Positions 2,675-47,938 of a DNA stretch of 64,000 nt are shown one piece after another; positions within the stretch are counted from its first letter, which is position 1, and each line of letters starts with the position of its first letter. The notes beneath the pieces were generated by a model. It saw only the letters and a program-made list of their open reading frames with translations. It was not told the origin of the DNA and ran no database searches. Source of the DNA: Candidatus Onstottus arcticum (GTDB lineage Bacteria > Acidobacteriota > Blastocatellia > UBA7656). The DNA lies in contig JBBPIE010000001.1 of NCBI GenBank assembly GCA_038040485.1, forward strand, positions 152,014 to 216,013, written 5' to 3'. The translations under genes were made by a program, and so were the position numbers.

Positions 2675-3787
2675 TCACGGCTTCTTCCGCCTCTGCTTCT
2701 CCTTTTCCCTCTCAAGCTCTCGCTGTTTTCGAAGTTCTTCTTCCATCTCGAGAATCGAAGGGGGAGGCGGCGCAAACGTTAGTTCCTCGCGATAAGTCGC
2801 GTAAACCGGCTTGCCGTTGAGCAGCGCAGGCGAGAAGCGATACTGGCGGAACGCGTCGATCGCGCGTTCGTCAATAATCGCATCCAGCGAGCGCATCACT
2901 CGCACGTTCACGATCTTCCCTTCGGGTGTGACGACGCCGCCCAACAACACCGAGCCTCGGATTGCGCGGACGGCCTCGAACTTTGGCGCCACCCGCTCGA
3001 GCGGAACCGGCAGCGTGAACCGATCGTTTTCCGTCATCTTCAACGCAGCCCCGAACTCATCGACTGGATGCGACAATTCCTGGGGCCGGTTGCGCAGGTT
3101 TGCAAGCGGGACGATCTCCGGCGTTACCGACATCAGCAGCGTCCGTTCGATTGGCACGCTTTCCTGGCGCCCGCCTGCTCCGATGTAGCTTTTTACGCCG
3201 AACATTCCTTTTCCGCCGCGAAGCAATACCGTCTCGAAGTTGTCCAACTCGACGCCCTTCAGGTCAAGCAGTGGTTGGTTCGCGTAGCGAACCTGCACGT
3301 CCAGTTTCATGAATCCCCGAACCACTTCGCGCGGAGTCACCGAGAAAACCATGTACTCCGGACCGAGCAAGACCGCGTCGCTGAAAGTATCGCCCGAGCG
3401 CAGACCGACTTCGCGCACGTGGCGCATCGCAAGTTCTTCGAGCTTGTGCTTGTCCTTCACATAGGCGCTCTCTTCTTGCGCGCTCGAAGCGGTGCTTGCA
3501 AGACGCGTGACTTCTTGCATCGCAGGCGAGCGAGCCGCATCGTATTGGTACGCGGCAAACGTAAAGTTGACTGCGTACTCGCGGCCGCCGGATCGCACGC
3601 CGCCCGACCCGCTTTGACCAGGCGCCGGCGAAGAACAAGTCAGAAACAGCGCAATAGCCGAGAGCGCGCAGAACGCCTTCCGCGAGCCTTGCGGTTTACT
3701 TTCCTTGAGCAAAGGAAGGGTCACTAAACGGCGCGAACGCGCCAGGACTAACCGCGAGTTTGAAACCCAACGGAACCAGTAGCTCAT
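2675..3787 (-). CDS. Lipoprotein/secreted protein with C-terminal TonB_C-like domain
   Basis: C-terminal segment VLLGGVVTPEGKIVNVRVMRSLDAIIDERAIDAFRQYRFSPALLNGKPV resembles the TonB C-terminal domain. N-terminal lipobox-like LTCSS. Start moved to ATG at 3787 (MSYWF) to avoid overlap with rsmI; start uncertain. Confidence 0.55.
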   Translation of the reverse strand: MSYWFRWVSNSRLVLARSRRLVTLPLLKESKPQGSRKAFCALSAIALFLTCSSPAPGQSGSGGVRSGGREYAVNFTFAAYQYDAARSPAMQEVTRLASTASSAQEESAYVKDKHKLEELAMRHVREVGLRSGDTFSDAVLLGPEYMVFSVTPREVVRGFMKLDVQVRYANQPLLDLKGVELDNFETVLLRGGKGMFGVKSYIGAGGRQESVPIERTLLMSVTPEIVPLANLRNRPQELSHPVDEFGAALKMTENDRFTLPVPLERVAPKFEAVRAIRGSVLLGGVVTPEGKIVNVRVMRSLDAIIDERAIDAFRQYRFSPALLNGKPVYATYREELTFAPPPPSILEMEEELRKQRELEREKEKQRRKKP

Positions 3788-3791
3788 ATGA

Positions 3792-4658
3792 TTAACCCCC
3801 GTCGCGCTCGCCATCGCGCTCGCCGGCGCGCTCAGTCAGCATTTGCCGATAAGCTTCGCTTTTGCCAATTCCGCGTGCGCGAGCGACTCGCTTGAGCGCG
3901 GTTTTCTTGTCAACGCGTTCAACGCGCATCAGTTCTTCGACGTCTTCAATCACCGGGCGGCTTGCGTGGACTTCCCCTGTGCGTGTCGCGGCCGGCGGAC
4001 CGAATAACAACACTATCTCGCCGCGTGTGCCTTCGGGAAGCTCGATCTCCGTCAGGTCGCCCCTGATGAATTCCTCGTGAATCTTTGTCAGCTCGCGCGC
4101 AACCACGACCCGCCGTTCGCCGAGCATCTCGCGCGCGTCGGCAAGCGCTTGTTTGATGCGATGAGGAGCTTCATAAAAAACAATCGTCATCGGCAGCGTC
4201 CCAAGCTCCGCGAGCCTCGCGCGGCGCGCCGTACGTTTGGACGGCAGAAACCCGGCGAAGATGAACTGATCGGTTGGAAGCCCTGAAGCTGCAACCGCCG
4301 CAATAAATGCCGACGCTCCGGGGATCGGCACTACGGGGATTCCTCGCTCGATCGCTTCCTGAACCACGCGAAGGCCCGGGTCGGAAACCAGCGGCGTGCC
4401 TGCGTCCGAGACCAACGCGATATTCGCGCCCGATTCGAGCCTGGCTATAAGCTCGCTCGTGCGCTCGCGCTCGTTGTGTTCGTGGTAGCTAACCGTCGGC
4501 CTGGAAATCTGATGGTGAGAGAGGAGCTTCCTCGTGTGGCGTGTGTCTTCACAGGCAATGAGATCCGCTTCCTTGAGGATGCGAAGCGCTCGAAGCGTGA
4601 TGTCTTCGAGATTCCCTATCGGAGTTGCAACTATGAAAAGCGTTCCTGACATGATCAA
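3792..4658 (-). CDS. rsmI: 16S rRNA (cytidine1402-2'-O)-methyltransferase
   Basis: N-terminus LFIVATPIGNLEDITLRALRILKEADLIACEDTRHTRKLL is the RsmI/YraL tetrapyrrole-methylase signature. Has a C-terminal ERDGERDGG extension. Confidence 0.9.
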   Translation of the reverse strand: MIMSGTLFIVATPIGNLEDITLRALRILKEADLIACEDTRHTRKLLSHHQISRPTVSYHEHNERERTSELIARLESGANIALVSDAGTPLVSDPGLRVVQEAIERGIPVVPIPGASAFIAAVAASGLPTDQFIFAGFLPSKRTARRARLAELGTLPMTIVFYEAPHRIKQALADAREMLGERRVVVARELTKIHEEFIRGDLTEIELPEGTRGEIVLLFGPPAATRTGEVHASRPVIEDVEELMRVERVDKKTALKRVARARGIGKSEAYRQMLTERAGERDGERDGG

Positions 4659-5287: not shown

Positions 5288-5402
5288 TGTTGTTCGCGGA
5301 GCAAGGCATGAAGTTTGACAGTCCAAACACTCTACACTATAGTGTGCCAGGCCGTTATTATAGCGCTATTCATAGTGGCCACGCTGAGCCACGGGGTTTT
5401 GA

Positions 5403-8400
5403 ATGTTCAGACTCGAAAAACTTGAGATCATCGGATTTAAGTCTTTTGCCGACCGCACAACTCTCGTCTTTGGCGAAGGGATTACCGGCGTCGTAGGCCC
5501 GAACGGCTGCGGCAAAAGCAACATCGCCGAAGCCATCTCGTGGGTGCTGGGCGAACAGTCCGCCAAGAATCTGCGCGGCGGCAAGATGGAAGACGTCATC
5601 TTCAACGGCACCCGTGACCGCAAGCCCACTGGCCTCGCCGAAGTGTTGCTCACGATGGTAGCTATCGAAGACATCGCTGCTCGCGACGCCCAGGAGCCGG
5701 ACGGCGACGACGAACTTGAGTTCGACGAAGCGCTCTCCAGCGCCCAGCGCGCCGCCGATGCCGCGCGCTCGCTAGTCGAGGAGCTTGCGCCGCCTGAGGA
5801 AGAAACAGCCGAGCTTCCGGAAGCCACGGCATCCGAAGCCGGCGAAACAACCGAACCGCTGGCGCAGCCCGACGACGTTGATTGCGCACTCTCTGATCAG
5901 GCAGGCGCAACCGAGCCAGCCACTGACGATCAATCGGCGGAAGTGCGAGGCGATTCCTCCCTCTCTCAACTTGAAGTCGAGCCCGTCGCCGGTGAGACAG
6001 ACGCGCAAACCGATCGCGAGGAAAAGAAGAAGCGTCGCTCGCCGCGCCCGCCCAAGCGCCGCACGATTGCAATATCGGCGGGTGAGCGCGTCACCGTCGG
6101 CCGCAGGCTTTACCGCACGGGCGACAGCGACTACCTCATGAACGGCCGGCCTTGCTTGTTGCGCGACGTTCAGGATCTGTTCGCTGGAACCGGACTGGGC
6201 GGCGCGCACTACGCGATCATCGAACAAGGCCGCATCGGGCAGATACTCTCTTCAAAGCCGCTCGACCGCCGCGGCCTGATCGAAGAAGCTGCGGGCATCA
6301 CTAAGTTCAAATCTCGCAAGCGCGCCACCGAACTCAAGCTCGATTCGGCCAAGCTGAACCTCACCCGGCTCAACGACATCATCAGCGAAGTCGAGCGGCA
6401 AGTGAACAGCCTCAAGCGGCAAGCGCAGAAGGCGCGCCGCTATCGCCGCCTCCGCGAAGAGATGCGCTCGCTGATGAAGGTGGTGTTCACCGCCGACCAC
6501 TACCGGCTCAGTGAAGCCAACGAGCGAGTTGCACGCGAGCTTCAAGAAGCCGGGCGCAACCAGACCGAGCTTGACACCCAACTCACCGAGCGTGAAACCG
6601 AGCATCGCGGTGTTTCGGGTCACGCGCGCTCGGCGGAAGACCAGCTTGCGGGTCTGCGCGAGCAGGCGGCGGCGCTCGAGCTTGAAGCGGACCGGGCGCG
6701 CAATCGCCGCGCGTTCGAGGAACAACAGATCAAGGAACTCGGCGCGCGGATCGAAGAACTCAATCGCGATCAACAAGCTTTTGACTCGCGGCTCGAGTTA
6801 CTGGACGAAGAAGCGAAGCGCCGCGGCGAAAGTCTCAGCGCGCTCGAGACTGAACTTGCGGCCGCGCAAGCCGGGCTGCTGACCTGCGACGGCGAATACC
6901 AGGAAGAGCTTTCGCGATTGCGCGCAGCCGAAGTCGAGATCGAAGCGATGCGCCAGCGAATGGTCTGGGAGATCGGCGCAACCGAACGGCTCCGGAACCT
7001 GGGCGCGAGCGTTCAGGATTCGTTTAAACGGCTCGAACTGAGGCAAACAACCCTGCAGGCTGAGTTCGAACGCGCGACGGCCCGGCGCGACGAAGCCGCA
7101 ACGGAGCACTCGCGCGTCCAGAGCGAATCCGACGACGGCCGCCGCCGCCTCGACGAACTTACTGCAAGAATCGCGGAGCGCGCTGCTGAAGTGATCACGC
7201 TACGCGACCAGCGCGCCGCGCTTCGCGCCGAGCTCGAGAAGACACAGGCCGAGCGGGTTGCTGCTCAGCACAGGCTTGCGTCGCTCGAAGATCTCGACCG
7301 ACACCGCGCCTACTACACCGACGCGGTTCAACAAGTGCTGTCGCCCGAACAAGCCACGCGCATAAACGCGCTTGGCACTCTGGCCGATTTCGTCGAGGTC
7401 GATAAGCCATACGAGGCGCTCGTCGAAAGCCTGTTTGGACGCGAGCTGCAATCCGTCCTCGTTCCCACCATCGATGATGCGCTTGCCGGCGTCGATTACA
7501 TCAAGAGCGAAGAACTGGGTCGCGGCGCGTTCCTTGTGGTTGGCCTGCACGGGGGCGAGGAAGACGCTTCGGATTCGGACGGTCGCCCAGACGACGAAGG
7601 CAGAGAGCCAAGCGACGACTCGCGAACCGAATGGTCGCAACAACCGGTCTTCGAAGTTGACGACAGAGGCCGCGTCTTCGACTCCGCGTCCGAGCCCGTG
7701 CCTATGCAGTTTCATCTCGAAGTGCTGCGCGCGATTGACCTGCTGGGGTTGAGGCCGGAAATCAAGAACGTAGTCGAACACGCTTTCCCGGAGAAATGCG
7801 GCGCGGCGGTCGTGCCGGATCTCGAAGCCGCGCTTCACCTCTCAATCGAGAACCAGTCGCGAATCTACGTCACGTCGGACGGCGAAATGGTAGTCAACGG
7901 GCGTTTGATCGTCACCGGCGCACAGGCCGGCCAGCGCGGGACTTCGCTTCTAGGGTTGAAGCGCGAGATCAAGGAGCTGCGAATTCAGAGTGAGACGCTT
8001 GGCCTCGAGCAAGAGCGGTTGAGCGGCGAGATGGACGACGCCGAGCGGAAGCTTGCGGGGATGGAAGGCGAGGCCGCCGCGCTCGACGGCGAGCTTCGCG
8101 AACACGAGAAGACCGCTGCCGCGCGAAGCTCCCAGCTCGAAGGGTTGGCACGGGATCTCGAACGCGCCGAGCAGCACGTGCGAGTCGTCGGGCTCGAGTT
8201 AGAGCAAACTGCCGATGAGCGGCGCGAGCAAGAAACACGTGACGAGCAGATCGCGGCGGAGCTCGCGGCTGCCGAAGCTTCCCGACTGAGCGTGCAGGCA
8301 TCGCTCGCGGAATCTCAGTTGTCTCTCTCTGAGATGCGGGCGGGCGCGGAGCAGATCTCCGAGCGATTGTCCTCAGCGAGGGCTTCGGCTGCGGCGCTTG

Positions 8401-9605
8401 GCGAGCGATTGCAAGCGGCGCGCGCTGAGATGCGGCGAATCGAAAGTGAGACTGAGGAGTTGAACTCGCGGATTAACCGCAACCGCCTCGAGATGTACGA
8501 GAGCCACGGCCGCATCGAGGAACTGACCGTCTCGCAGACCGAAGCGGCGGGCGCACTGGCGCGCTTCGAGGCCGAGCGCGCGTCGCTCGATGAAAGCATC
8601 GACGCCGCGAGCAAGGAACTTCAAACGGCGCGCGCAAGGACCGACGAGCTCGAGACGATGCTCAGCGAGATGCGCCAGGCCGTTTCGGCGGCGCACGACC
8701 GGCGAAGCCAGTTCGAAATCGAACGTGCGAGAATCGAATCCGAGGCCGAGCATCTCGCGCGCACCTGCCTATCCGAGCTTGCGATGTCACTCGAAGACGT
8801 GGTGACCAGCGTTGAGATCAGTGGTCAGTGGCCGGAAGGCGGAGGCCAGAGGTCAGAAGTCGGAGATCAGAAGTCAGAAGTCGGCAGTCAGGTCCCGGAT
8901 CATTTGGCAGAGACTGATGGGGAGCAGACCGATCTGACCTCTGACCTCCGACCTCTGACCTCTGATTCCGCGCGCAGCCGCCTCGACGAGTTGCGCCGAA
9001 AGATAGACGAGATCGGGCCGGTCAATATGATGGCGCTCGAGGAGCTGGAGGAGTCCGAGCAGCGGTTCAAGTTCCTGAGCGAACAACGACGCGACATACT
9101 TGACTCGATCCGAATGACCGAGGAAGCGCTCACCGAGATTCGGCGGAGGTCGCGCGAGCGATTCCGCCACGCGTTCGCGCACATCAATGAAAACTTCCAG
9201 CGGATGTTCGTCGAGTTGTTTGGCGGCGGGCGCGGCGAGATGATTTTGATCGACCAAGACGACGTGCTCGAGTCGGGCATCGATCTGATCGCGCAGCCGC
9301 CCGGTAAGCGATTACAAAACGTGTTGCTCTTGTCGGGCGGTGAGAAAGCGATGGCGGCGATCGCGCTTGTGCTTGCGATCTTCCAGTACCGGCCTTCGCC
9401 GTTCTGCATACTCGACGAAGTCGATGCGCCGCTTGATGAGGTCAACGTCGGCCGGTTCTCGGACAAAGTGATAGAGATGAGCCGCGACACGCAGTTTCTG
9501 GTCATCACTCACAACAAACGCACTATGGAAGCCGCGCGAGCGCTTTACGGCGTCACTATGCAAGAGCCCGGCGTATCGAAACTCGTCTCGGTCAAGTTCG
9601 AGTAG
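5403..9605 (+). CDS. smc: Chromosome segregation protein SMC
   Basis: N-terminal head MFRLEKLEIIGFKSFADRTTLVFGEGITGVVGPNGCGKSNI (Walker A). Long coiled coils. C-terminal LSGGEKAMAAIALVLAIF signature and Walker B (ILDEVDAPLD). Confidence 0.93.
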   Translation: MFRLEKLEIIGFKSFADRTTLVFGEGITGVVGPNGCGKSNIAEAISWVLGEQSAKNLRGGKMEDVIFNGTRDRKPTGLAEVLLTMVAIEDIAARDAQEPDGDDELEFDEALSSAQRAADAARSLVEELAPPEEETAELPEATASEAGETTEPLAQPDDVDCALSDQAGATEPATDDQSAEVRGDSSLSQLEVEPVAGETDAQTDREEKKKRRSPRPPKRRTIAISAGERVTVGRRLYRTGDSDYLMNGRPCLLRDVQDLFAGTGLGGAHYAIIEQGRIGQILSSKPLDRRGLIEEAAGITKFKSRKRATELKLDSAKLNLTRLNDIISEVERQVNSLKRQAQKARRYRRLREEMRSLMKVVFTADHYRLSEANERVARELQEAGRNQTELDTQLTERETEHRGVSGHARSAEDQLAGLREQAAALELEADRARNRRAFEEQQIKELGARIEELNRDQQAFDSRLELLDEEAKRRGESLSALETELAAAQAGLLTCDGEYQEELSRLRAAEVEIEAMRQRMVWEIGATERLRNLGASVQDSFKRLELRQTTLQAEFERATARRDEAATEHSRVQSESDDGRRRLDELTARIAERAAEVITLRDQRAALRAELEKTQAERVAAQHRLASLEDLDRHRAYYTDAVQQVLSPEQATRINALGTLADFVEVDKPYEALVESLFGRELQSVLVPTIDDALAGVDYIKSEELGRGAFLVVGLHGGEEDASDSDGRPDDEGREPSDDSRTEWSQQPVFEVDDRGRVFDSASEPVPMQFHLEVLRAIDLLGLRPEIKNVVEHAFPEKCGAAVVPDLEAALHLSIENQSRIYVTSDGEMVVNGRLIVTGAQAGQRGTSLLGLKREIKELRIQSETLGLEQERLSGEMDDAERKLAGMEGEAAALDGELREHEKTAAARSSQLEGLARDLERAEQHVRVVGLELEQTADERREQETRDEQIAAELAAAEASRLSVQASLAESQLSLSEMRAGAEQISERLSSARASAAALGERLQAARAEMRRIESETEELNSRINRNRLEMYESHGRIEELTVSQTEAAGALARFEAERASLDESIDAASKELQTARARTDELETMLSEMRQAVSAAHDRRSQFEIERARIESEAEHLARTCLSELAMSLEDVVTSVEISGQWPEGGGQRSEVGDQKSEVGSQVPDHLAETDGEQTDLTSDLRPLTSDSARSRLDELRRKIDEIGPVNMMALEELEESEQRFKFLSEQRRDILDSIRMTEEALTEIRRRSRERFRHAFAHINENFQRMFVELFGGGRGEMILIDQDDVLESGIDLIAQPPGKRLQNVLLLSGGEKAMAAIALVLAIFQYRPSPFCILDEVDAPLDEVNVGRFSDKVIEMSRDTQFLVITHNKRTMEAARALYGVTMQEPGVSKLVSVKFE
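8818..8965. repeat. Imperfect palindromic simple-repeat element, in-frame inside smc
   Basis: Left arm 'agtggtcagtggccggaaggcggaggccagaggtcagaagtcggagatcagaagtcagaagtcgg'. Right arm 'gatctgacctctgacctccgacctctgacctctga' is the reverse complement of the GTCAGAGG-type units. Centre contains GGATCAT. Encodes QWPEGGGQRSEVGDQKSEVGS...TDLTSDLRPLTSDS. Confidence 0.85.
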
Positions 9606-12099: not shown

Positions 12100-13047
12100 T
12101 CAAGACGATCCTCTCAGGTACTCAACTGCCTCTTCGAAAGCTCGCTGCTCATCGCCAAACCGATTGATCCACTTCACATCAGGCCACGAGCGCCACCATG
12201 AAAGCTGACGCTTGGCATAGTGGCGTGTGTCGAGCTTCATCTGATTCAACGCGTCTTCGCGTGATCGCTTTCCCTCCAGGTACTCCACCACCCTTCGGTA
12301 TCCATGAGCCCCGAACGCCTTTGCCGATGCGGGCACGCCTGACGCGATCAGCGATTCAACCTCTTCGACAAGTCCGCCGGCAAACATGCGCTCGGCCCGG
12401 GCGTTGATCCTCGCATACAGCTCGTCGCGCGGCGGGTTGAGTGCGATCACCCGAATGCGCGCGGCGAATTCCGGAGGAGCAGGACCGCCGGTTCTCACTT
12501 CCGAAATTCTCTGCCCGGTTTGAAAAAAGACTTCCAGAGCACGCATCGTTCGAGACCAATCTCGAGGGCTGATTGTCTTTGCTGCCTCGGCGTCCACGCG
12601 GCTGAGGATGTGGTGCAAGTGTTCCGTGCCTCGCTTGTCGCGAAGCGCAATGAGCCTGTTGCGAAACGCGGTGTTTGTTTCCGGCCCTTCAAACAGCGGG
12701 CGCATCAAGGCGCGCAAGTAGAAGCCGGTGCCGCCAACCAAAACCGCGGACCGGCCGCGCGTTTCGATCTCGCTCACAGTCCGCGCAGCAACCCGCGCGT
12801 ACTCGCCGGCTGTGAAGTTCTGGGCGGGCTCGGCAATATCGATCAAGTGATGAGGCACCCCGCGGCGCTCGGCAAGCGGCACCTTCGCAGTGGCGACGTA
12901 GATTCCTCGATAGACCTGAACTGAATCGAGGTTGACGATTTCGCCCGAGGAGACCAGCGCAAGCAGCAGACCTAGCTCGCTCTTGCCCGAGGCGGTCGGA
13001 CCAACGATCGCCGGAATCAATCGCGCCGGACCATCATCGCTTTTCAC
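12100..13047 (-). CDS. miaA: tRNA dimethylallyltransferase
   Basis: P-loop IVGPTASGKSELGL. Also the motifs NLDSVQVYRGIYVATAKV and HHLIDI typical of MiaA. Confidence 0.9.
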   Translation of the reverse strand: MKSDDGPARLIPAIVGPTASGKSELGLLLALVSSGEIVNLDSVQVYRGIYVATAKVPLAERRGVPHHLIDIAEPAQNFTAGEYARVAARTVSEIETRGRSAVLVGGTGFYLRALMRPLFEGPETNTAFRNRLIALRDKRGTEHLHHILSRVDAEAAKTISPRDWSRTMRALEVFFQTGQRISEVRTGGPAPPEFAARIRVIALNPPRDELYARINARAERMFAGGLVEEVESLIASGVPASAKAFGAHGYRRVVEYLEGKRSREDALNQMKLDTRHYAKRQLSWWRSWPDVKWINRFGDEQRAFEEAVEYLRGSS

Positions 13048-33366: not shown

Positions 33367-35025
33367 ATGAAGAAGGTCTTGTCATTCGGGATTCTCGTGA
33401 CCCTGCTCTCGGCGTGGGCAGTGCCGAGTTATCCCGTTTACTCCCAACCCCGGCAGCCGGGCGACCAGTACGTCGATGATCAGATACTCGTCAAGTTCAA
33501 AGCCGACGCTGATCTTGCCTCCGACGCCGAAGAACTAGCCGACGAGATCTTTCAAGTGCGCGGCGCACACGCCGAAGCGCTATCAGCACGTGGCCGGAGT
33601 TCTCAACTGGTTCACTTGAATGGAAGGCTGTCCGTTGACGAAGCCGTTCAGCGCGCCAAAGCCGATCCGCGGGTCGAATACGCTGAACCCAACTACCTCG
33701 TGCAAACCGGCCAGACGATACCCAACGACCCGTCATTCAGTCAGATGTGGGGCCTTTCCAATGCCGGATGTCCCGGCTGCGTGGCTGTCCACATCGACGC
33801 GACCAGAGCGTGGGACATTTCTAAAGGAAGCGACGACGTTGTGGCAGTGGTTTTGGACACGGGAGTGGACATCGCGCACGAGGACCTCGCGCCGAACGTC
33901 TGGGTTAACCCTCGCGAGATCGCGGGCAACGGCGTGGACGATGACGGCAACGGTTTCGTGGATGACGTGAACGGTTGGAATTTCCGTGACAAGACAAACC
34001 AGGTCTTCATATCGTCGAGCGAGGACCTTCACGGCACTCATGTGGCAGGCACGATCGGAGCTCTCGGGAACAACGGGAAAGGTGTCACCGGAGTGGCGTG
34101 GCATGTGAAGCTGATGTCTCTGAAGTTTTTGGGTGGGCCCGAGGGTAAGGGCTCGACTGGAAACGCGATCAAGGGAATCAACTACGCGATCGATCAGCGC
34201 AATCGAGGCATCAATGTAACAGTCATCAACGCGAGCTGGGGCGGCTCGGGCAGTTCGCAATCGCTGCAGGACGCGATAACGGCAGCCGGAAACGCGGGCA
34301 TCCTGTTTGTGTGCTCGGCTGGCAACAACGGCACCGACGTGGCCGAGGATCCGGAGTTCCCTTCGGGATTTGGCGCGCTGCCAACGTGCCTGTCAGTGGC
34401 GGCGATGGATTTTTTTGACAACCTGGCTTTGTTTTCAAGCTTCGGGCATTCCGCGGTTGGAGTCGCGGCACCCGGTCTTAGCATCCTCAGCACGTCGCCT
34501 CGGAACCAGTTTTCACCCAACGGGGGATACGCAACGTTGAGCGGCACATCGATGTCAGCGCCTCACGTCACAGGAATAGCGGTGCTGTTGTGGTCGCTCG
34601 AACCGTCGCTGTCGCCCGCCGAAGTAAAGCAGCGCATCGTTTCTACTTCGGAACCGATACCGGCTCTCGCGTCCAGGGTCGCGAACTCCGGCCGGGCAAA
34701 CGCTTTTTACGCTTTAACAAGGCGAACAGCGCCGCCTCGAAGCCCGATTATTACCAGAGTGGATTTCACAAAGAAGTTTGTAACTCTGGATGGGCTCGGC
34801 TTCGTGAACGGCGCGACGGTCATCGAGGTCAACGGCGTGGCACTTCCCACGGTTGAGTACGAGGCTTCGTATACACTTTCAAACGGGACGTTTACGCGGA
34901 TATCATCGAAGCTCGGCACGAAACCGATGAAAAAGACCTTCCCGAAAGGTCAGTTTGTTGGGGTCACGGTCTTCAACCCGGCTACCGGCGAGCGCTCAGT
35001 GCAGTTCACAACAGCGAGATTCTAG
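33367..35025 (+). CDS. Secreted subtilisin-like serine peptidase (S8) with I9-like propeptide
   Basis: DTGVDIAHEDL, HGTHVAGTIGA and GTSMSAPHVTGIAVLL catalytic motifs. Signal peptide. Confidence 0.9.
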   Translation: MKKVLSFGILVTLLSAWAVPSYPVYSQPRQPGDQYVDDQILVKFKADADLASDAEELADEIFQVRGAHAEALSARGRSSQLVHLNGRLSVDEAVQRAKADPRVEYAEPNYLVQTGQTIPNDPSFSQMWGLSNAGCPGCVAVHIDATRAWDISKGSDDVVAVVLDTGVDIAHEDLAPNVWVNPREIAGNGVDDDGNGFVDDVNGWNFRDKTNQVFISSSEDLHGTHVAGTIGALGNNGKGVTGVAWHVKLMSLKFLGGPEGKGSTGNAIKGINYAIDQRNRGINVTVINASWGGSGSSQSLQDAITAAGNAGILFVCSAGNNGTDVAEDPEFPSGFGALPTCLSVAAMDFFDNLALFSSFGHSAVGVAAPGLSILSTSPRNQFSPNGGYATLSGTSMSAPHVTGIAVLLWSLEPSLSPAEVKQRIVSTSEPIPALASRVANSGRANAFYALTRRTAPPRSPIITRVDFTKKFVTLDGLGFVNGATVIEVNGVALPTVEYEASYTLSNGTFTRISSKLGTKPMKKTFPKGQFVGVTVFNPATGERSVQFTTARF

Positions 35026-35097
35026 CGCCGCAAGCTTGAGTCCGTGCCTTTGCGTGTTGACCTCTAAGCCTTATCCCAACGGGATTCCATCTCCTAG

Positions 35098-35343
35098 CCC
35101 AAGGTTGCCGTACTCGGCTACCTTGGGTTGGCTGATCGCGATGCGTTCAAACCCCAACGGGGTTGCGGCACTCGCAGCCAGGATGATGAACAATTAGACC
35201 ATGGCAGTTCTACCTGCTACCGTCGGCTGCAACGTCTTCGAGGTTGGCACACGACCGACCCGACCTCGGGACCGGCACCGTCACCCAAGGTAGCCGAGTA
35301 CGGCAACCTTGGGCTGCGAGTCGCAACCCCTTCGGGGTAGGCT
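35098..35343. repeat. Nested inverted-repeat / multi-hairpin structure upstream of thyA
   Basis: 31-nt perfect inverted repeat 35098-35128 vs 35283-35313; each arm is itself a hairpin (CCCAAGG...CCTTGGG). Adjacent module 35146-35178 (CCCCAACGGGG + TTGCGGCACTCGCAGC) is reverse-complementary to 35314-35343 (GCTGCGAGTCGCAA + CCCCTTCGGGG). Confidence 0.8.
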
Positions 35344-35390
35344 TGTCCGCCTGAGCGCCGTGCCAATAGAATACCCTCGCGATCAAAGCC

Positions 35391-36185
35391 ATGAAACAAT
35401 ACCTCGACTTGATGAAACACGTTCTCGATCACGGCGCGACCAGGCAAGATCGAACCGGAACGGGAACGCTGTCAGTCTTCGGTTATCAAACGAGGTTCGA
35501 CCTCGCCGAGGGCTTCCCGCTTCTTACCACCAAGAAGCTGCACGTCAAGTCGATCATCTACGAGTTGCTCTGGTTCTTGAGAGGCGATACGAATGTCCGC
35601 TACCTGAAAGAGCACGGCGTGAACATCTGGAATGAGTGGGCCGATGAGCAGGGCGAACTGGGGCCCGTGTACGGCTCGCAGTGGAGGTCGTGGCGCACCG
35701 CGGAGCGCGGATCGATCGACCAGATCACCGAAGTGATCGGCCAGATCAAGACTAACCCAAACTCACGCAGGTTGATGGTCACGGCGTGGAACCCGGGCGA
35801 ACTCTCCGAGATGAAGCTGCCGCCTTGCCACGCGCTCTTTCAGTTCTACGTCTCCCAGGGGAAGCTTTCGTGTCAGCTCTATCAACGCTCGGCCGACGTG
35901 TTTCTTGGCGTGCCGTTCAACATCGCGTCTTACGCGCTGCTGACTATGATGGTAGCTCGAGTGTGCGATCTCGAACCGGGAGAGTTTGTGCACACCTTCG
36001 GGGACGTTCACCTTTACTCGAATCACATCGAGCAGGCAAGGGAGCAGCTCACTCGTGAGCCTTTCGAGCTTCCGAAGATGAAGATCAATCCGGAGGTCCG
36101 GTCGATCTTCGAGTTCGACTATGCGGATTTCGAGCTTGTGGGCTACCGGGCTCATCCTCACATCAAAGCCGAGGTCGCGGTGTGA
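35391..36185 (+). CDS. thyA: Thymidylate synthase
   Basis: [31 protein letters not shown]...[11 protein letters not shown] is the classic ThyA sequence. Confidence 0.95.
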
Positions 36186-36676
36186 TCATCTCATTGATCG
36201 TTGCAATGGACGAGAAGCGCGGAATCGGCAAAGCGGGCACGCTGCCCTGGCGGCTGTCTTCGGACCTGAAGCGGTTTCGCGAGCTGACGATGGGTCATCA
36301 CATCATCGTCGGCCGCAAGACTTTTGAATCGATCGGCAAGCCGCTGCCCGGCAGGCACACGATAGTCGTCACCCGAAGCGAGGCTCGCTATCCCGAAGGT
36401 TGCCTGGTCGCGCTTTCGGTCGAAGCTGCAATTCAACTCGCTCGCGAACGAGGCGAGACCGAAGCGTTCATCTGCGGAGGCGCGGCGATCTACTGCGGCG
36501 CGCTTGCTGTTGCTGATCGGTTGTATGTAACCGTGGTGCAGGCTTCGGTTGACGCCGACGTGTTCTTTCCGCATATCGATGACGCAGCCTGGGTCGAGAA
36601 GGAAAGCGAAAGCCACAACGCTGACGAGAAGAATCAATACCCATTCACGTTCAAGCTGCTAGAGAAGAAGGAGTGA
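36182..36676 (+). CDS. folA: Dihydrofolate reductase
   Basis: [50 protein letters not shown] start overlapping the thyA stop (GTGA). Confidence 0.9.
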
Positions 36677-36722: not shown

Positions 36723-37172
36723 ATGATCGAACTCAAGATAAAACTGCTTGATCCCGATGGTACGTTGCCGCGCTATCAGCACGAAGGCGACGCGGGCCTC
36801 GACTTGTCGAGCCGTGTTGACCTGACGCTTCAGCCGGGCGATCGAGCTACGGTTCCGACGGGCATCGCGGTGGCGATACCGGGCGGCTACGCGGGGTTTG
36901 TGTTGCCTCGCAGCGGGCTTGCAGCGCGCCACGGAATCGCGCTGGTGAACTCGCCCGGGTTGATCGATGCTGGTTATCGTGGCGAGGTAGCCATCGTCAT
37001 GATCAACACCGACAAGAACGAAGCGTTTCACATCAAGTGCGGCGACCGCATCGCCCAGTTGGTACTGCAACAAGTCGTTGAAGCTACGACCGTCGAAGTC
37101 GAAGAGCTGGATGAAACGTCGCGCGGCTCGGGCGGCTTCGGAAGCACCGGCACTTCGAAAGGGCGTGAGTGA
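36723..37172 (+). CDS. dut: dUTP diphosphatase
   Basis: dUTPase motifs AGLDL, PRSGLA, GLIDAGYRGE and the C-terminal RGSGGFGSTG. Confidence 0.92.
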   Translation: MIELKIKLLDPDGTLPRYQHEGDAGLDLSSRVDLTLQPGDRATVPTGIAVAIPGGYAGFVLPRSGLAARHGIALVNSPGLIDAGYRGEVAIVMINTDKNEAFHIKCGDRIAQLVLQQVVEATTVEVEELDETSRGSGGFGSTGTSKGRE

Positions 37173-37198
37173 TTTCCCTCTGGCGCCTGGTTGGCAAG

Positions 37199-37260
37199 CA
37201 ATTTTGGATTTTAGATTTTGGATTTTGGATTAGCGGAATGGCCTGTTTCACAGGCCCTCG
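37199..37260. repeat. TTTTGGA(TTTTAGA) tandem-repeat half-element followed by a small hairpin
   Basis: aattttggattttagattttggattttggatt, then GGCCTGT-TTCAC-AGGCC. Same repeat unit as the full palindromic copy at 41578-41692. Confidence 0.75.
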
Positions 37261-37292
37261 GTTCAAAGCATCAAGCCAGGAGAGGAGACGAA

Positions 37293-37514
37293 ATGGGTTG
37301 GAATGATGAGGAAGACAATAACATCTACAAAGTCGTGATGAACCACGAAGAGCAGTATTCAATTTGGCCTGCCGATCGAGAGAACCCGCTTGGCTGGACG
37401 GACGTCGGCAAGGTTGGGCCAAAAGCCGAATGCCTGGACTACATAAAAGAGGTGTGGACCGACATGCGGCCGCTCAGCCTGAGAAAAAAGATGGAAGAAG
37501 ACGCGAAACGCTAA
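37293..37514 (+). CDS. MbtH-like protein
   Basis: [51 protein letters not shown] is a textbook MbtH-like sequence with conserved W residues. Strong SD (aggagaggagacgaaATG). Confidence 0.88.
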
Positions 37515-37672
37515 AGGAGATGCGCGATCAGTGCCGGCTAGGCGAGCGCGGGCTGTAACCCGTGTGTTTGCGGCCGTGATAACGCAAGGCACGGGTCTTT
37601 CCTGGCGACACCGCCAACATACTGTGGGCTCCATCCGAGAGTCTGGTAGAATGACGCCGAGGTAACCAGGCT

Positions 37673-37900
37673 ATGGAAGCATTAAGCGCCAAGGAAGTAT
37701 ACGAACTTCACGTGAAACGGCTGCCACCAGAGGAGCGCAAGCGATTGGCGGAGATGATTACCCGCGCGATAGAACCACCGACTCATCAAGGCGAACGCAG
37801 CCTCCTGGAACTAGAAGGGCTCGGCGCCGAACTCTGGGAAGGAGTCGACGCCCAGGAATACGTCAATGAACTGAGAAAAGAATGGGACCACCGCCCGTAA
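37673..37900 (+). CDS. Putative antitoxin (VapB-like)
   Basis: 75-aa ORF immediately upstream of and overlapping a PIN-domain gene. Charged and helical. Confidence 0.55.
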   Translation: MEALSAKEVYELHVKRLPPEERKRLAEMITRAIEPPTHQGERSLLELEGLGAELWEGVDAQEYVNELRKEWDHRP

Positions 37901-38346
37901 TCAAGCTCGACGACGCTCTTGAGGGTGTTACAAGGCTCGGCTTTGACACGTCGCCCTTCATCTACTTTGTTGAACGTAACCCTAAGTATCTGGATCTGGT
38001 CCGCGAGGTTATTCGCAGAGTTGATCTTGGGGAAATTGAGGGCCTGAGTTCGGTCGTTACCCTCACCGAGGTACTCACCAAGCCCAAGCAATCCGGCAAT
38101 GCCGTCATCGAAGCCGAGTACAGTTCCTTGCTGCTCACCAGTCGAAACTTCGCGCTCTTGCCAATCAGCATCGGAGTTGCTGAGATCGCTGCAGATTTGC
38201 GCGCGCGATACAGCATACGCACACCGGACGCTCTGCAGATCGCCGCAACTCTGAGCGTGGGCTGCCAGGCGTTCCTCACAAACGATGCCGCGTTACGGCG
38301 TGTAAACGACCTCAGGATTCTGGTCTTGGACCAACTGGAATTGTGA
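37882..38346 (+). CDS. PIN-domain toxin (VapC-like)
   Basis: LGFDTSPFIYF...SVVTLTEV...FLTNDAALRR fits the PIN acidic residues. The 19-nt overlap with the upstream ORF suggests the true start may be a downstream codon. Confidence 0.65.
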   Translation: MGPPPVIKLDDALEGVTRLGFDTSPFIYFVERNPKYLDLVREVIRRVDLGEIEGLSSVVTLTEVLTKPKQSGNAVIEAEYSSLLLTSRNFALLPISIGVAEIAADLRARYSIRTPDALQIAATLSVGCQAFLTNDAALRRVNDLRILVLDQLEL

Positions 38347-38348
38347 AT

Positions 38349-47410: not shown

Positions 47411-47862
47411 CGATCATTCCTCGGGCCCCATCCACATGCGGAGGCCGCACTGATTGTATTAAACGTGAGTTGAATCAATGGGGGGAGTCGTTTCAACTTC
47501 ACTTCGGTAGCCAGACTTTCTCAGGAACGAAGCTTCGAGCGACGACCTCAAGAGAAGCATTCGTCGCCAGTTGCGCAGCGTTCCAAAGACCTTGGCTTTG
47601 CGACCCAGGATCACTCCTGGTGTGCCCTTATCGGCTTCGTTCAAAACAACTTAAGTGCATAGCCAGTGTAGTCTGCGGGGTCAGGGGAGTCAATAGTTAG
47701 TATTTGCAGCGGTGTTCCCGTCGCGCGATAGAATTAGTTGCTTGATGTTGGCTTCTTTGCGCTAGGCTGAGGCGGGGTTCAGCTTGACACTCAATCTCGG
47801 CCTCCGCTATTTTGAGGGGTCTCATTGTTCGCAAAAAAGCTAACAAAGGCAGTTCCTCGAAG

Positions 47863-47938
47863 GCCAGCGTAGCTCAGTTGGTAGAGCATCGGTTTCGTAA
47901 ACCGGAGGTCAAGGGTTCGAGTCCCTTCGCTGGCTCCA
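47863..47938 (+). tRNA. tRNA-Thr (anticodon CGU)
   Basis: GCCAGCGTAGCTCAGTTGGTAGAGCATCGGTTTCGTAAACCGGAGGTCAAGGGTTCGAGTCCCTTCGCTGGCTCCA. Acceptor stem 7 bp, GTTCGAGTC T-loop, anticodon loop TTCGTAA, encoded CCA. Confidence 0.85.

Follow-up and report, generated by a model that had tools for sequence, protein, structure and literature searches.

A probable non-autonomous, Y1-linked hairpin repeat between an S8 protease gene and thyA in Candidatus Onstottus arcticum

The thyA gene of Candidatus Onstottus arcticum (Acidobacteriota, Blastocatellia) is preceded by an intergenic spacer in which nested inverted repeats form a conspicuous series of hairpins. This arrangement raises the question of whether the hairpins control expression of the thyA-folA-dut genes or belong to a repeat with no particular tie to them. 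A first-pass annotation of the window (the 64,000-nt stretch of contig JBBPIE010000001.1, assembly GCA_038040485.1, analyzed in this work) had offered three options: a structured leader or attenuator, a MITE, or a recombination site. We present evidence that the feature is very probably a Y1-linked, non-autonomous REPIN/MITE-like copy inserted between an S8 protease gene and the thyA promoter. The recurrence of the repeat at many unrelated intergenic sites, together with its flanking of a Y1/HUH transposase gene, marks it as a parasitic mobile element rather than a regulator of thyA, and the family to which it belongs is an ordinary selfish dispersed repeat, parasitic and mobile.

Anatomy and genomic site of the element

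The 31 nt at positions 35098-35128 are the exact reverse complement of positions 35283-35313, with 0 mismatches. No inverted repeat of this length is expected by chance, and none was seen in 100 dinucleotide-preserving shuffles. Both this repeat and the hairpin within each of its arms, as reported by the first-pass annotation, were confirmed, with the refinement that the stem (CCCAAGGT-T-GCCG, loop, CGGC-T-ACCTTGGG) contains an internal T.T mismatch, read as A.A in the other arm. The arms lie within a longer, 57-nt inverted repeat at 84% (35072-35128 / 35283-35339). A second module had also been described as recurring in inverted orientation, and the underlying complementarity is present, at 88% between 35151-35167 and 35322-35338 and at 100% between 35170-35179 and 35312-35321. 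The pairing of hairpin C with hairpin F that was drawn from it does not hold, as comparison across copies shows F to be the counterpart of A and D that of C. All four small hairpins (A, C, D, and F) fit the pattern CAAYCCC-loop-GGGRTTG, and this mutual likeness explains why C had been matched with F.

The same comparison with other copies raises the number of hairpins from the four originally proposed to six, arranged as two convergent three-hairpin modules in the order A-B-C...C'-B'-A' (Table 1). The earlier judgment that the order is not a simple palindrome was thus mistaken: the element is a pseudo-palindrome of ∼270 nt. As single-stranded DNA, each half of the element folds into three local hairpins on either strand. 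The extent of the element was delimited by using a profile of full-length Blastocatellia copies, which matched positions 35065-35345 (nhmmer, E 6e-72), and by blastn, in which the window element showed 72-82% similarity over its full length to the copies at loci L020, L021, L022, and L027. Hairpin A has lost its outer pairs in the window copy relative to the family consensus (CAAYCCC-AAC-GGGRTTG). Hairpin E is the exact reverse complement of hairpin B in the window copy, and its stem reads CCCAGGG/CCCTGGG in most other copies.

Table 1. Coordinates of the element, its parts, and the neighboring genes within the window
Feature	Position	Strand	Sequence or description	Evidence
S8 subtilase gene	33367..35025	+	Upstream neighbor	Pfam PF00082, E 1.9e-53
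Whole non-autonomous element	35071..35340	.	Convergent dimer plus short center	nhmmer, blastn, alignment
Small hairpin A	35073..35085	+	ATCCC-AAC-GGGAT	Covariation of helix across 29 and 243 copies
Tetranucleotide foot	35094..35097	+	CTAG (family NCAG), immediately 5' of hairpin B	Column counts
Large hairpin B	35098..35127	+	CCCAAGGT-T-GCCG TACT CGGC-T-ACCTTGGG, conserved T.T mismatch (35106 / 35119)	
Small hairpin C	35150..35164	+	AACCCC-AAC-GGGGTT	
Central non-palindromic segment	35165..35229	.	GGATGATGAACAA..., read as a probable deletion scar	Alignment, nhmmer on Y1 loci
Small hairpin D	35230..35246	+	CAACGTC-TTC-GAGGTTG, one G.G mismatch; matches C in the inverted module	
Large hairpin E	35284..35313	+	CCCAAGGT-A-GCCG AGTA CGGC-A-ACCTTGGG, A.A mismatch (35292 / 35305)	
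Small hairpin F	35324..35340	+	CAACCCC-TTC-GGGGTAG, degraded outer pair region; counterpart of A	
Sigma-70-like thyA promoter (predicted)	35343..35372	+	TTGTCC-18 nt-TAGAAT, outside the element	Promoter scan
thyA (thymidylate synthase)	35391..36185	+	Downstream neighbor	Pfam PF00303, E 6e-129
folA	36182-36676		After thyA	PF00186
dut	36723-37172		After folA	PF00692

The element starts 46 nt past the S8 stop codon and ends 50 nt before the thyA ATG. Between its end and the gene lies the only sigma-70-like site that the promoter scan returned in the region (1 site versus 0.1 expected). The ∼50 nt adjoining thyA, including this promoter, are conserved among the window and the related loci L033 and L034. 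In the first of these (ThyA 91% identical), the S8-thyA spacer is 129 nt long and lacks the element; in the second (ThyA 94% identical), the element was not found in the 95 nt available upstream of thyA. A third relative, L032 (ThyA 86% identical), keeps the same S8-thyA-folA-dut gene order with 5 nt between the S8 stop codon and the thyA ATG. As such, the S8-thyA spacer of the window appears, from these alignments, to have been expanded by a selfish insertion upstream of the predicted thyA promoter. The exact ends of the insertion are uncertain because one filled/empty pair of sites is available for comparison, and its left flank is too diverged to place them.

These observations bear directly on the proposal that the hairpins constitute a cis-regulatory RNA, namely, a structured 5' leader or attenuator of thyA-folA-dut. 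In favor of such a leader, the element lies on the coding strand with 50 nt left to the ATG, and its RNA fold is far more stable than those of shuffled sequences (z = -8.3). Yet the opposite strand folds equally well, and G.U/G.T pairs are very rare. The element is absent from the S8-thyA spacers of L032 and L033, shows no sign in L034, and is found in identical form beside unrelated genes at >150 loci. In addition, because the predicted promoter is located downstream of the end of the element (∼35340), a transcript initiated there would not contain the hairpins, and the conservation of that promoter further argues against a leader or attenuator. No Rfam family accounts for the region: a search of positions 34900-35500 gave nothing at E <= 10 except two chance-level matches, and no match reached the gathering score at the window element or across 12 related loci. 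We therefore consider a thyA leader exceedingly improbable and already largely refuted, which removes the tempting idea of a thyA attenuator at this locus.

A different kind of host role concerns the upstream gene. The element could have been exapted as a stabilizer of the S8 mRNA 3' end or as a pause/termination barrier insulating thyA, in the manner of some REP/BIME elements of Escherichia coli; REPs have established roles in the stability of mRNA and in termination (reviewed in PMC3733652 and PMC6006769), which count in favor of this proposal. So do the location of the element, 46 nt past the S8 stop codon and ahead of an independent thyA promoter, and the arrangement in L032, where the two genes, which are separated in the window, lie 5 nt apart and are probably cotranscribed. 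On the other hand, no hairpin is followed by a T-tract, and a terminator scan of the element came back empty. Moreover, L033 has a separate promoter without having the element, which is thus not needed for a separate-promoter arrangement. Such exaptation would be compatible with a mobile origin as a secondary role, and we regard it as unlikely. Any local barrier to the S8 transcript at its 3' end is a matter of speculation; at most, the insertion might insulate the S8 transcript from thyA or stabilize its 3' end.

Dispersal of the repeat and maintenance of its hairpins

The distribution of the repeat was surveyed by exact-pattern scans for CCCAAGGTWGCCGNNNNCGGCWACCTTGGG, using one genome per species, which retrieved 30 loci in genome assemblies, with several loci per assembly. 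The hosts belong to Blastocatellia (Acidobacteriota) and to Verrucomicrobia (Akkermansiaceae, Luteolibacter, and an uncultured Verrucomicrobiae MAG). Copies were found on 7 contigs of Blastocatellia SMAG_U16398 and 6 contigs of Akkermansia sp. bin_89, and one Verrucomicrobiae MAG carries 5 loci on 3 contigs. A scan of metagenomes added at least 120 further loci, mostly from soil samples, going by the record names. No matches to the hairpin pattern were present in the viral contigs scanned, and a blastn search of a plasmid collection did not match the element.

In a profile search, 302 half-units were detected in 155 loci among the matches listed. Most half-units form convergent doublets; in the 87 that were collected, the half-units lie a median of 41 nt apart. 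L100 and L114 contain tandem arrays that repeat every 77-85 nt, and L065 and L144 contain alternating arrays. Homology among copies is full length, spanning about -26 to +245 relative to hairpin B, with 72-82% identity among Blastocatellia copies; verrucomicrobial copies share the same architecture in a slightly longer form. The 64-kb window itself holds a single copy by profile search (35065-35345), and the multicopy status of the element in the source organism is extrapolated from its relatives. A break of the Logan contig L001 inside hairpin E was considered as a sign of further copies and rejected, because a 31-nt self-complementary k-mer on its own breaks a k=31 assembly graph.

At every locus examined, the element is intergenic. 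The 110 proteins flanking the genome loci fall into 173 Pfam families, and among the top families flanking these loci we found neither a recurrent neighbor gene nor a transposase. The first-pass annotation had reasoned that a 31-mer present many times in non-regulatory contexts would be simply a dispersed repeat, and in related genomes that is how it occurs.

Among 29 half-units, double substitutions were seen at nine pairs of the small hairpins, and the observed covariation score is reached by 0 of 500 shuffles. In 243 unique half-units, 5911 paired positions of the three hairpins are Watson-Crick, counting every stem pair once per copy, and several compensated types occur; at pair 5/26 of the large hairpin, for instance, 135 half-units have G-C and 99 have A-T. 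The T.T mismatch is retained in 232 of these 243 half-units, and the AG of the foot directly 5' of the large hairpin, which lay outside the search pattern, is ∼98% conserved (A in 238, G in 240). Each locus retrieved by pattern has one large hairpin whose sequence was set by the search itself, so that the invariance of this hairpin is judged mainly from the partner halves and from the loci that protein homology yielded (see below).

For 57 of the 87 dimers, the large hairpins differ by the compensated A-T/G-C pair, such that each folds perfectly alone whereas pairing between B and E would carry a mismatch, which argues that local hairpins are favored over long-range B:E pairing. The perfect 31-mer of the window copy arises because this copy belongs to the rarer A-T/A-T dimer class (6 of 87). 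Judging from these substitution patterns, the hairpins appear to be maintained as Watson-Crick palindromes. On the T.T strand of the 243 half-units, G.T pairs are rare (96), yet commoner than A.C pairs (41), a hint that folding takes place on the T.T strand.

An architecture conserved across two phyla with compensatory changes could also be expected of a gene for an independent structured non-coding RNA with several copies in each genome, and the modest excess of G.T over A.C (96 versus 41) points the same way. This explanation is very unlikely: the pseudo-dyad symmetry yields equivalent hairpins on both strands, the modules occur in tandem and alternating arrays (L100, L114, L065, and L144), the element contains no conserved promoter or terminator and belongs to no Rfam family, and the repeat is physically linked to a transposase gene.

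The linked Y1 transposase gene and a proposed mechanism

Locus L100 carries an ORF on the minus strand that is bordered by four tandem modules at one end and by four inverted modules at the opposite end. Its 148-amino-acid product matches the Y1_Tnp family (Pfam PF01797, E 3e-15). Against the NCBIfam IS200 model NF033573, it scored 42.9 bits, under the cutoff of 55, and it gave no match to the REP-associated model NF047646, which does match the controls from L076 and L120. In all, module-flanked Y1 genes were found at 9 of the loci retrieved by pattern (L100, L146, L108, L099, L039, L144, L011, L065, and L127). Homologs at 70-79% identity sit directly between modules in L146, L108, L099, L039, L144, and L011 (the last from a Blastocatellia MAG), and L065 and L127 carry truncated copies. 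Intact copies contain the DHVH and YIAEQ motifs. Three of the nine genes are inactivated, by a stop at the catalytic Tyr, by an early stop, or by a disrupted HUH motif, which suggests that activity may be extinct in many hosts.

The association was also recovered from the opposite direction. A protein search returned >6000 relatives of the 148-aa protein, automatically annotated as "RayT" or "putative transposase"; among those with ≥70% identity, the annotations name hosts from both Verrucomicrobiota and Blastocatellia. All 5 loci chosen by protein homology only (L156, L158, L161, L162, and L163, including L156 from Verrucomicrobiota and L158 from Blastocatellia AA13) proved to be flanked by modules, with plus-oriented modules ending 10-75 nt before the ATG and a minus-oriented module beginning right after the stop codon. 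A PDB sequence search with the Y1 protein gave no match at E <= 0.01. The E. coli RayT protein (tblastn) found no match in the first 34 loci or the window; its only later matches, at L076 and L120, are not of the 148-aa family. These two RAYT genes were considered as partners of the repeat and rejected, because their different flanking palindromes and their distance of 3.7-6 kb from the element identify them as unrelated REP families.

The profile of the dimer connects the gene-bearing loci to the ORF-less form. When aligned to the Y1 loci with nhmmer, it covers the upstream flank of the gene to -15..-28 and then resumes over the last 14-26 nt of the ORF and the downstream flank; in L011, L100, L158, and L099, profile positions from ∼139 onward run into the 3' end of the ORF. 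In the window copy, the right part of the central segment (35165-35229) is homologous to these last 14-26 nt of the Y1 ORF in autonomous copies. The doublet therefore looks like a gene-bearing unit from which the ORF has been deleted, and the 270-nt element of the window looks like a non-autonomous, REPIN/MITE-like derivative of a Y1 unit. We found no Y1 gene within the 64-kb window, and the presence of the enzyme in the source organism is, like the copy number, extrapolated from relatives.

The earlier suggestion of a MITE can be retained insofar as the element is non-coding, terminally inverted, and dispersed; its kind appears to be Y1/HUH (REP/REPIN-like) instead of DDE. For a classical MITE, i.e., a deletion derivative of a DDE-transposase insertion sequence that moves by cut-and-paste with target-site duplications, one could cite the long terminal inverted repeats (57 nt, 84%), the length of ∼270 nt, the lack of coding capacity, and the dispersal. 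However, no direct duplication was found around the window copy or other copies, and no DDE gene is bounded by modules, the sole DDE_3 gene (in L161) merely adjoining a half-unit. The ends, furthermore, are the very hairpin modules that flank the Y1 gene. Little probability is thus left for a DDE origin. The third initial suggestion, a recombination site, is apt only insofar as a Y1 transposase probably uses the hairpins as its substrates.

Under the preferred reading as a Y1-linked non-autonomous repeat, the following course of events may be proposed. A convergent doublet of two ∼100-nt modules, each consisting of a small hairpin, a linker, a 30-nt hairpin with the conserved T.T mismatch, a spacer, and a second small hairpin, would have been inserted between the S8 gene and the thyA promoter in this lineage. 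A Y1 enzyme encoded elsewhere in the genome would act in trans, recognizing the mismatched hairpin and the foot tetranucleotide on DNA that is transiently single stranded; by cutting and rejoining, it would move or copy the ORF-less doublet without target-site duplication. We infer the single-strand mechanism by analogy with the established biochemistry of IS608/ISDra2 TnpA and of TnpAREP. The foot tetranucleotide likewise sits at the position of the guide/GTAG sequence in IS200/REP systems (PMC8266576) and may have a corresponding function. REPtrons, BIMEs, and REPINs, as well as the part played by stem mismatches and a 5' tetranucleotide in Y1 recognition, are described in PMC6006769, PMC8266576, and PMC3733652.

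Relation to known repeat families

The closest parallels are the REP/BIME/REPIN-RAYT systems (REPtrons) of E. coli, Pseudomonas, and Stenotrophomonas. These share ∼30-nt extragenic imperfect palindromes with a conserved stem mismatch; a prevalence of inverted doublets, often heterodimeric, along with clustered arrays; several copies per genome, here judged from related assemblies, without target duplications; and one small Y1 HUH gene with these same palindromes on its flanks. The present family nevertheless differs in several respects. Its foot is NCAG as opposed to GT[AG]G or CGTC, with GTAG occurring only inside the stem of hairpin E, and its unit is a three-hairpin composite of ∼100 nt where a REP is one hairpin. 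The enzyme has the class 1 tyrosine motif YIxxQxxHH and not the Y---NP of class 2 (TnpAREP). Copies from the two phyla have an identical large-hairpin stem, in contrast to the usually genus-specific REPs, and the apparent density, at 1 copy per 64 kb in the window, is low.

With IS200/IS605 elements and their ORF-less derivatives (PATEs), the family shares a Y1 HUH transposase of ∼150 aa (PF01797) that has a Y---Q motif, subterminal hairpins in which one base is unpaired or mismatched, and a tetranucleotide 5' of the foot. As in PATEs, the non-autonomous form keeps both ends and loses the ORF. Unlike IS200/IS605, whose ends are different hairpins on the same strand, the ends here are one module in inverted orientation (plus upstream, minus downstream); in addition, the NF033573 score is under the cutoff, there is no tnpB, and the flanks are often multiplied into arrays.

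Among the published TnpAY1 groups, the 148-aa protein is placed in subclass 1.2 by motif only, and this assignment is accordingly provisional. It has DHVH, WQ, and YIAEQEAHH motifs and a conserved C-terminal tail of ∼30 aa, to be compared with the DH[IV]H, WQ, and YIKNQKEHH published for the subclass (Quentin et al. 2018, Table 1; PMC6006769). Members of this subclass are described as low-copy genes, mostly of Cyanobacteria/Bacteroidetes, scored "REP: no" and generally lacking terminal secondary structures (PMC6006769). The gene described here, in contrast, is consistently flanked by genome-dispersed hairpin modules, and its hosts are Acidobacteriota and Verrucomicrobiota. Class 3, from Planctomycetes/Acidobacteria, provides another precedent, in that it includes an acidobacterial Y1 flanked by atypical high-copy structures and described as an intermediate between IS and REPtron, with ∼600 associated hairpins in Solibacter usitatus. 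Class 3 proteins, however, are longer (median 178 aa versus 148 aa here) and differ in their motifs (NHVH, W[TA], and YV..EQ versus DHVH, WQ, and YIxxQxxHH), and the associated foot is CnGA where that of the present family is NCAG.

The ERIC/IRU, Correia, BOX, and RUP repeats resemble the element: they are intergenic and non-coding, measure 100-300 nt, and have long inverted termini, and BOX is also modular. They differ in having DDE-type mobilization or no known enzyme, and Correia and RUP duplicate their target. To our knowledge, none of them flanks a Y1 gene.

We found no description of this repeat family in the searchable literature, which does not prove that none exists. It is about an even question whether the family represents an undescribed REPtron-like system built on TnpAY1 subclass 1.2, in which ORF-less doublets proliferate and the enzyme and hairpin have moved between phyla. 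In such a system, composite three-hairpin modules would replace single REPs, the ORF-less 270-nt doublets would be the proliferating form, and the enzyme (70-78% identity) and the hairpin (identical basal stem) would have moved together between Acidobacteriota and Verrucomicrobiota. If this is true, the family would stand, as a living intermediate, between insertion sequences on one side and domesticated REP systems on the other. Subclass 1.2 is close to the IS200 transposases and was published without associated palindromes (PMC6006769); the sole, modestly novel point is the partnership of a Y1 subclass published as REP-less with a hairpin repeat, common to two phyla.

Through this linkage, a very large, poorly characterized group of small Y1 proteins (>6000 relatives) is connected with a specific hairpin, its probable substrate, that is dispersed in two abundant soil phyla. 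It also provides a concrete protein/DNA pair with which the choice of hairpins by single-strand transposases can be tested, and the same pair bears on how IS200-like elements might turn into REP-like genome residents.

Three further candidates were rejected on structural grounds: an integron attC site, since no single long hairpin is framed by R''/R' AAC...GTT and a cassette array is missing; an intrinsic terminator, for which the T-tract is absent; and a CRISPR, as the "spacers" of the L100 and L114 arrays are the conserved hairpins themselves. In practical terms, such repeats cause breaks in metagenome assemblies, and a tandem array of them could be miscalled as a CRISPR.

Variation of the repeat and its behavior in assemblies

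The verrucomicrobial form of the repeat, represented by L007, L015, L024, L028, L031, and further verrucomicrobial loci, is about 300 to 340 nt long. In these copies, the loop of large hairpin E is longer, and an additional outer inverted repeat (AATGCCTTTAAGGATTGG ... CCAATCCTTAAAGGCATT) lies immediately beyond the six-hairpin core. Elsewhere, a hairpin unit of 77 to 85 nt is arrayed in tandem, with as many as 8 units (L100 and L114; see the table). Given their 30-nt palindromic repeat, such arrays could be miscalled as CRISPR; a CRISPR identity was ruled out, as the "spacers" are conserved small hairpins.

L001, the Logan contig matching the window, belongs to a publicly available short-read assembly of this organism and breaks off precisely within hairpin E, its positions 1 to 60 corresponding to the window from 35287 onward. 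The perfect inverted repeat is 31 nt long, the k-mer size of that assembler, and by itself would be enough to break the assembly graph.

Features located in the window and at other loci
Locus	Feature	Coordinates	Strand	Remark
L100	Tandem arrays of hairpin unit	3308-3665; 4139-4458
L114	Tandem array of hairpin unit	2-595
L161	Solitary half-unit (one three-hairpin module)	7773-7872		Directly adjoins DDE_3 gene
L161	DDE_3 transposase gene	7960-9372		Near Y1 locus
L076	Classical REP-associated tyrosine transposase gene	12313-12873		NCBIfam NF047646
L120	Classical REP-associated tyrosine transposase gene	3816-4415		NCBIfam NF047646
Window	Small ORF upstream of PIN-domain gene	37673-37900		Within 37173-38348
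Window	PIN-domain gene	37882-38346		Within 37173-38348
Window	c-di-GMP-I riboswitch aptamer	47503-47636	-	Rfam scan of whole window; 47.2 bits (gathering score, 35)
Window	tRNA gene	47863-47935	+	Rfam scan of whole window

Transposases and other palindrome systems

Three of the nine Y1 transposase genes found through the hairpin pattern (L146, L039, and L011) are inactivated: one has a stop codon where the catalytic Tyr should be, another terminates at codon 9, and in the third HUH has become HVP. These lesions suggest that the enzyme is decaying in some hosts while the repeats remain. The DDE_3 gene at L161, a locus chosen by Y1 protein homology, may belong to an insertion sequence targeting these palindromes, by analogy with those that target REPs.

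The classical REP-associated transposase genes of L076 and L120 are each flanked by perfect palindromes of their own, which differ from the hairpins of the present repeat (for example, TGGGAGCGCGGCCGTCCCGGCCGCAT at L076). The soil bacteria carrying these loci therefore harbor at least two unrelated REP systems.

Other features of the window

In L032, a relative with the orthologous gene order, dut (5335-5796) and a dCTP-deaminase-like gene (5837-6427) are neighbors, whereas in the window they are separated by the PIN-domain gene and small ORF. Judged from this gene order, the ∼1.2-kb toxin-antitoxin-like segment is a second lineage-specific indel in the thyA-folA-dut operon neighborhood. Farther along, the riboswitch aptamer and tRNA gene lie ∼230 nt apart.
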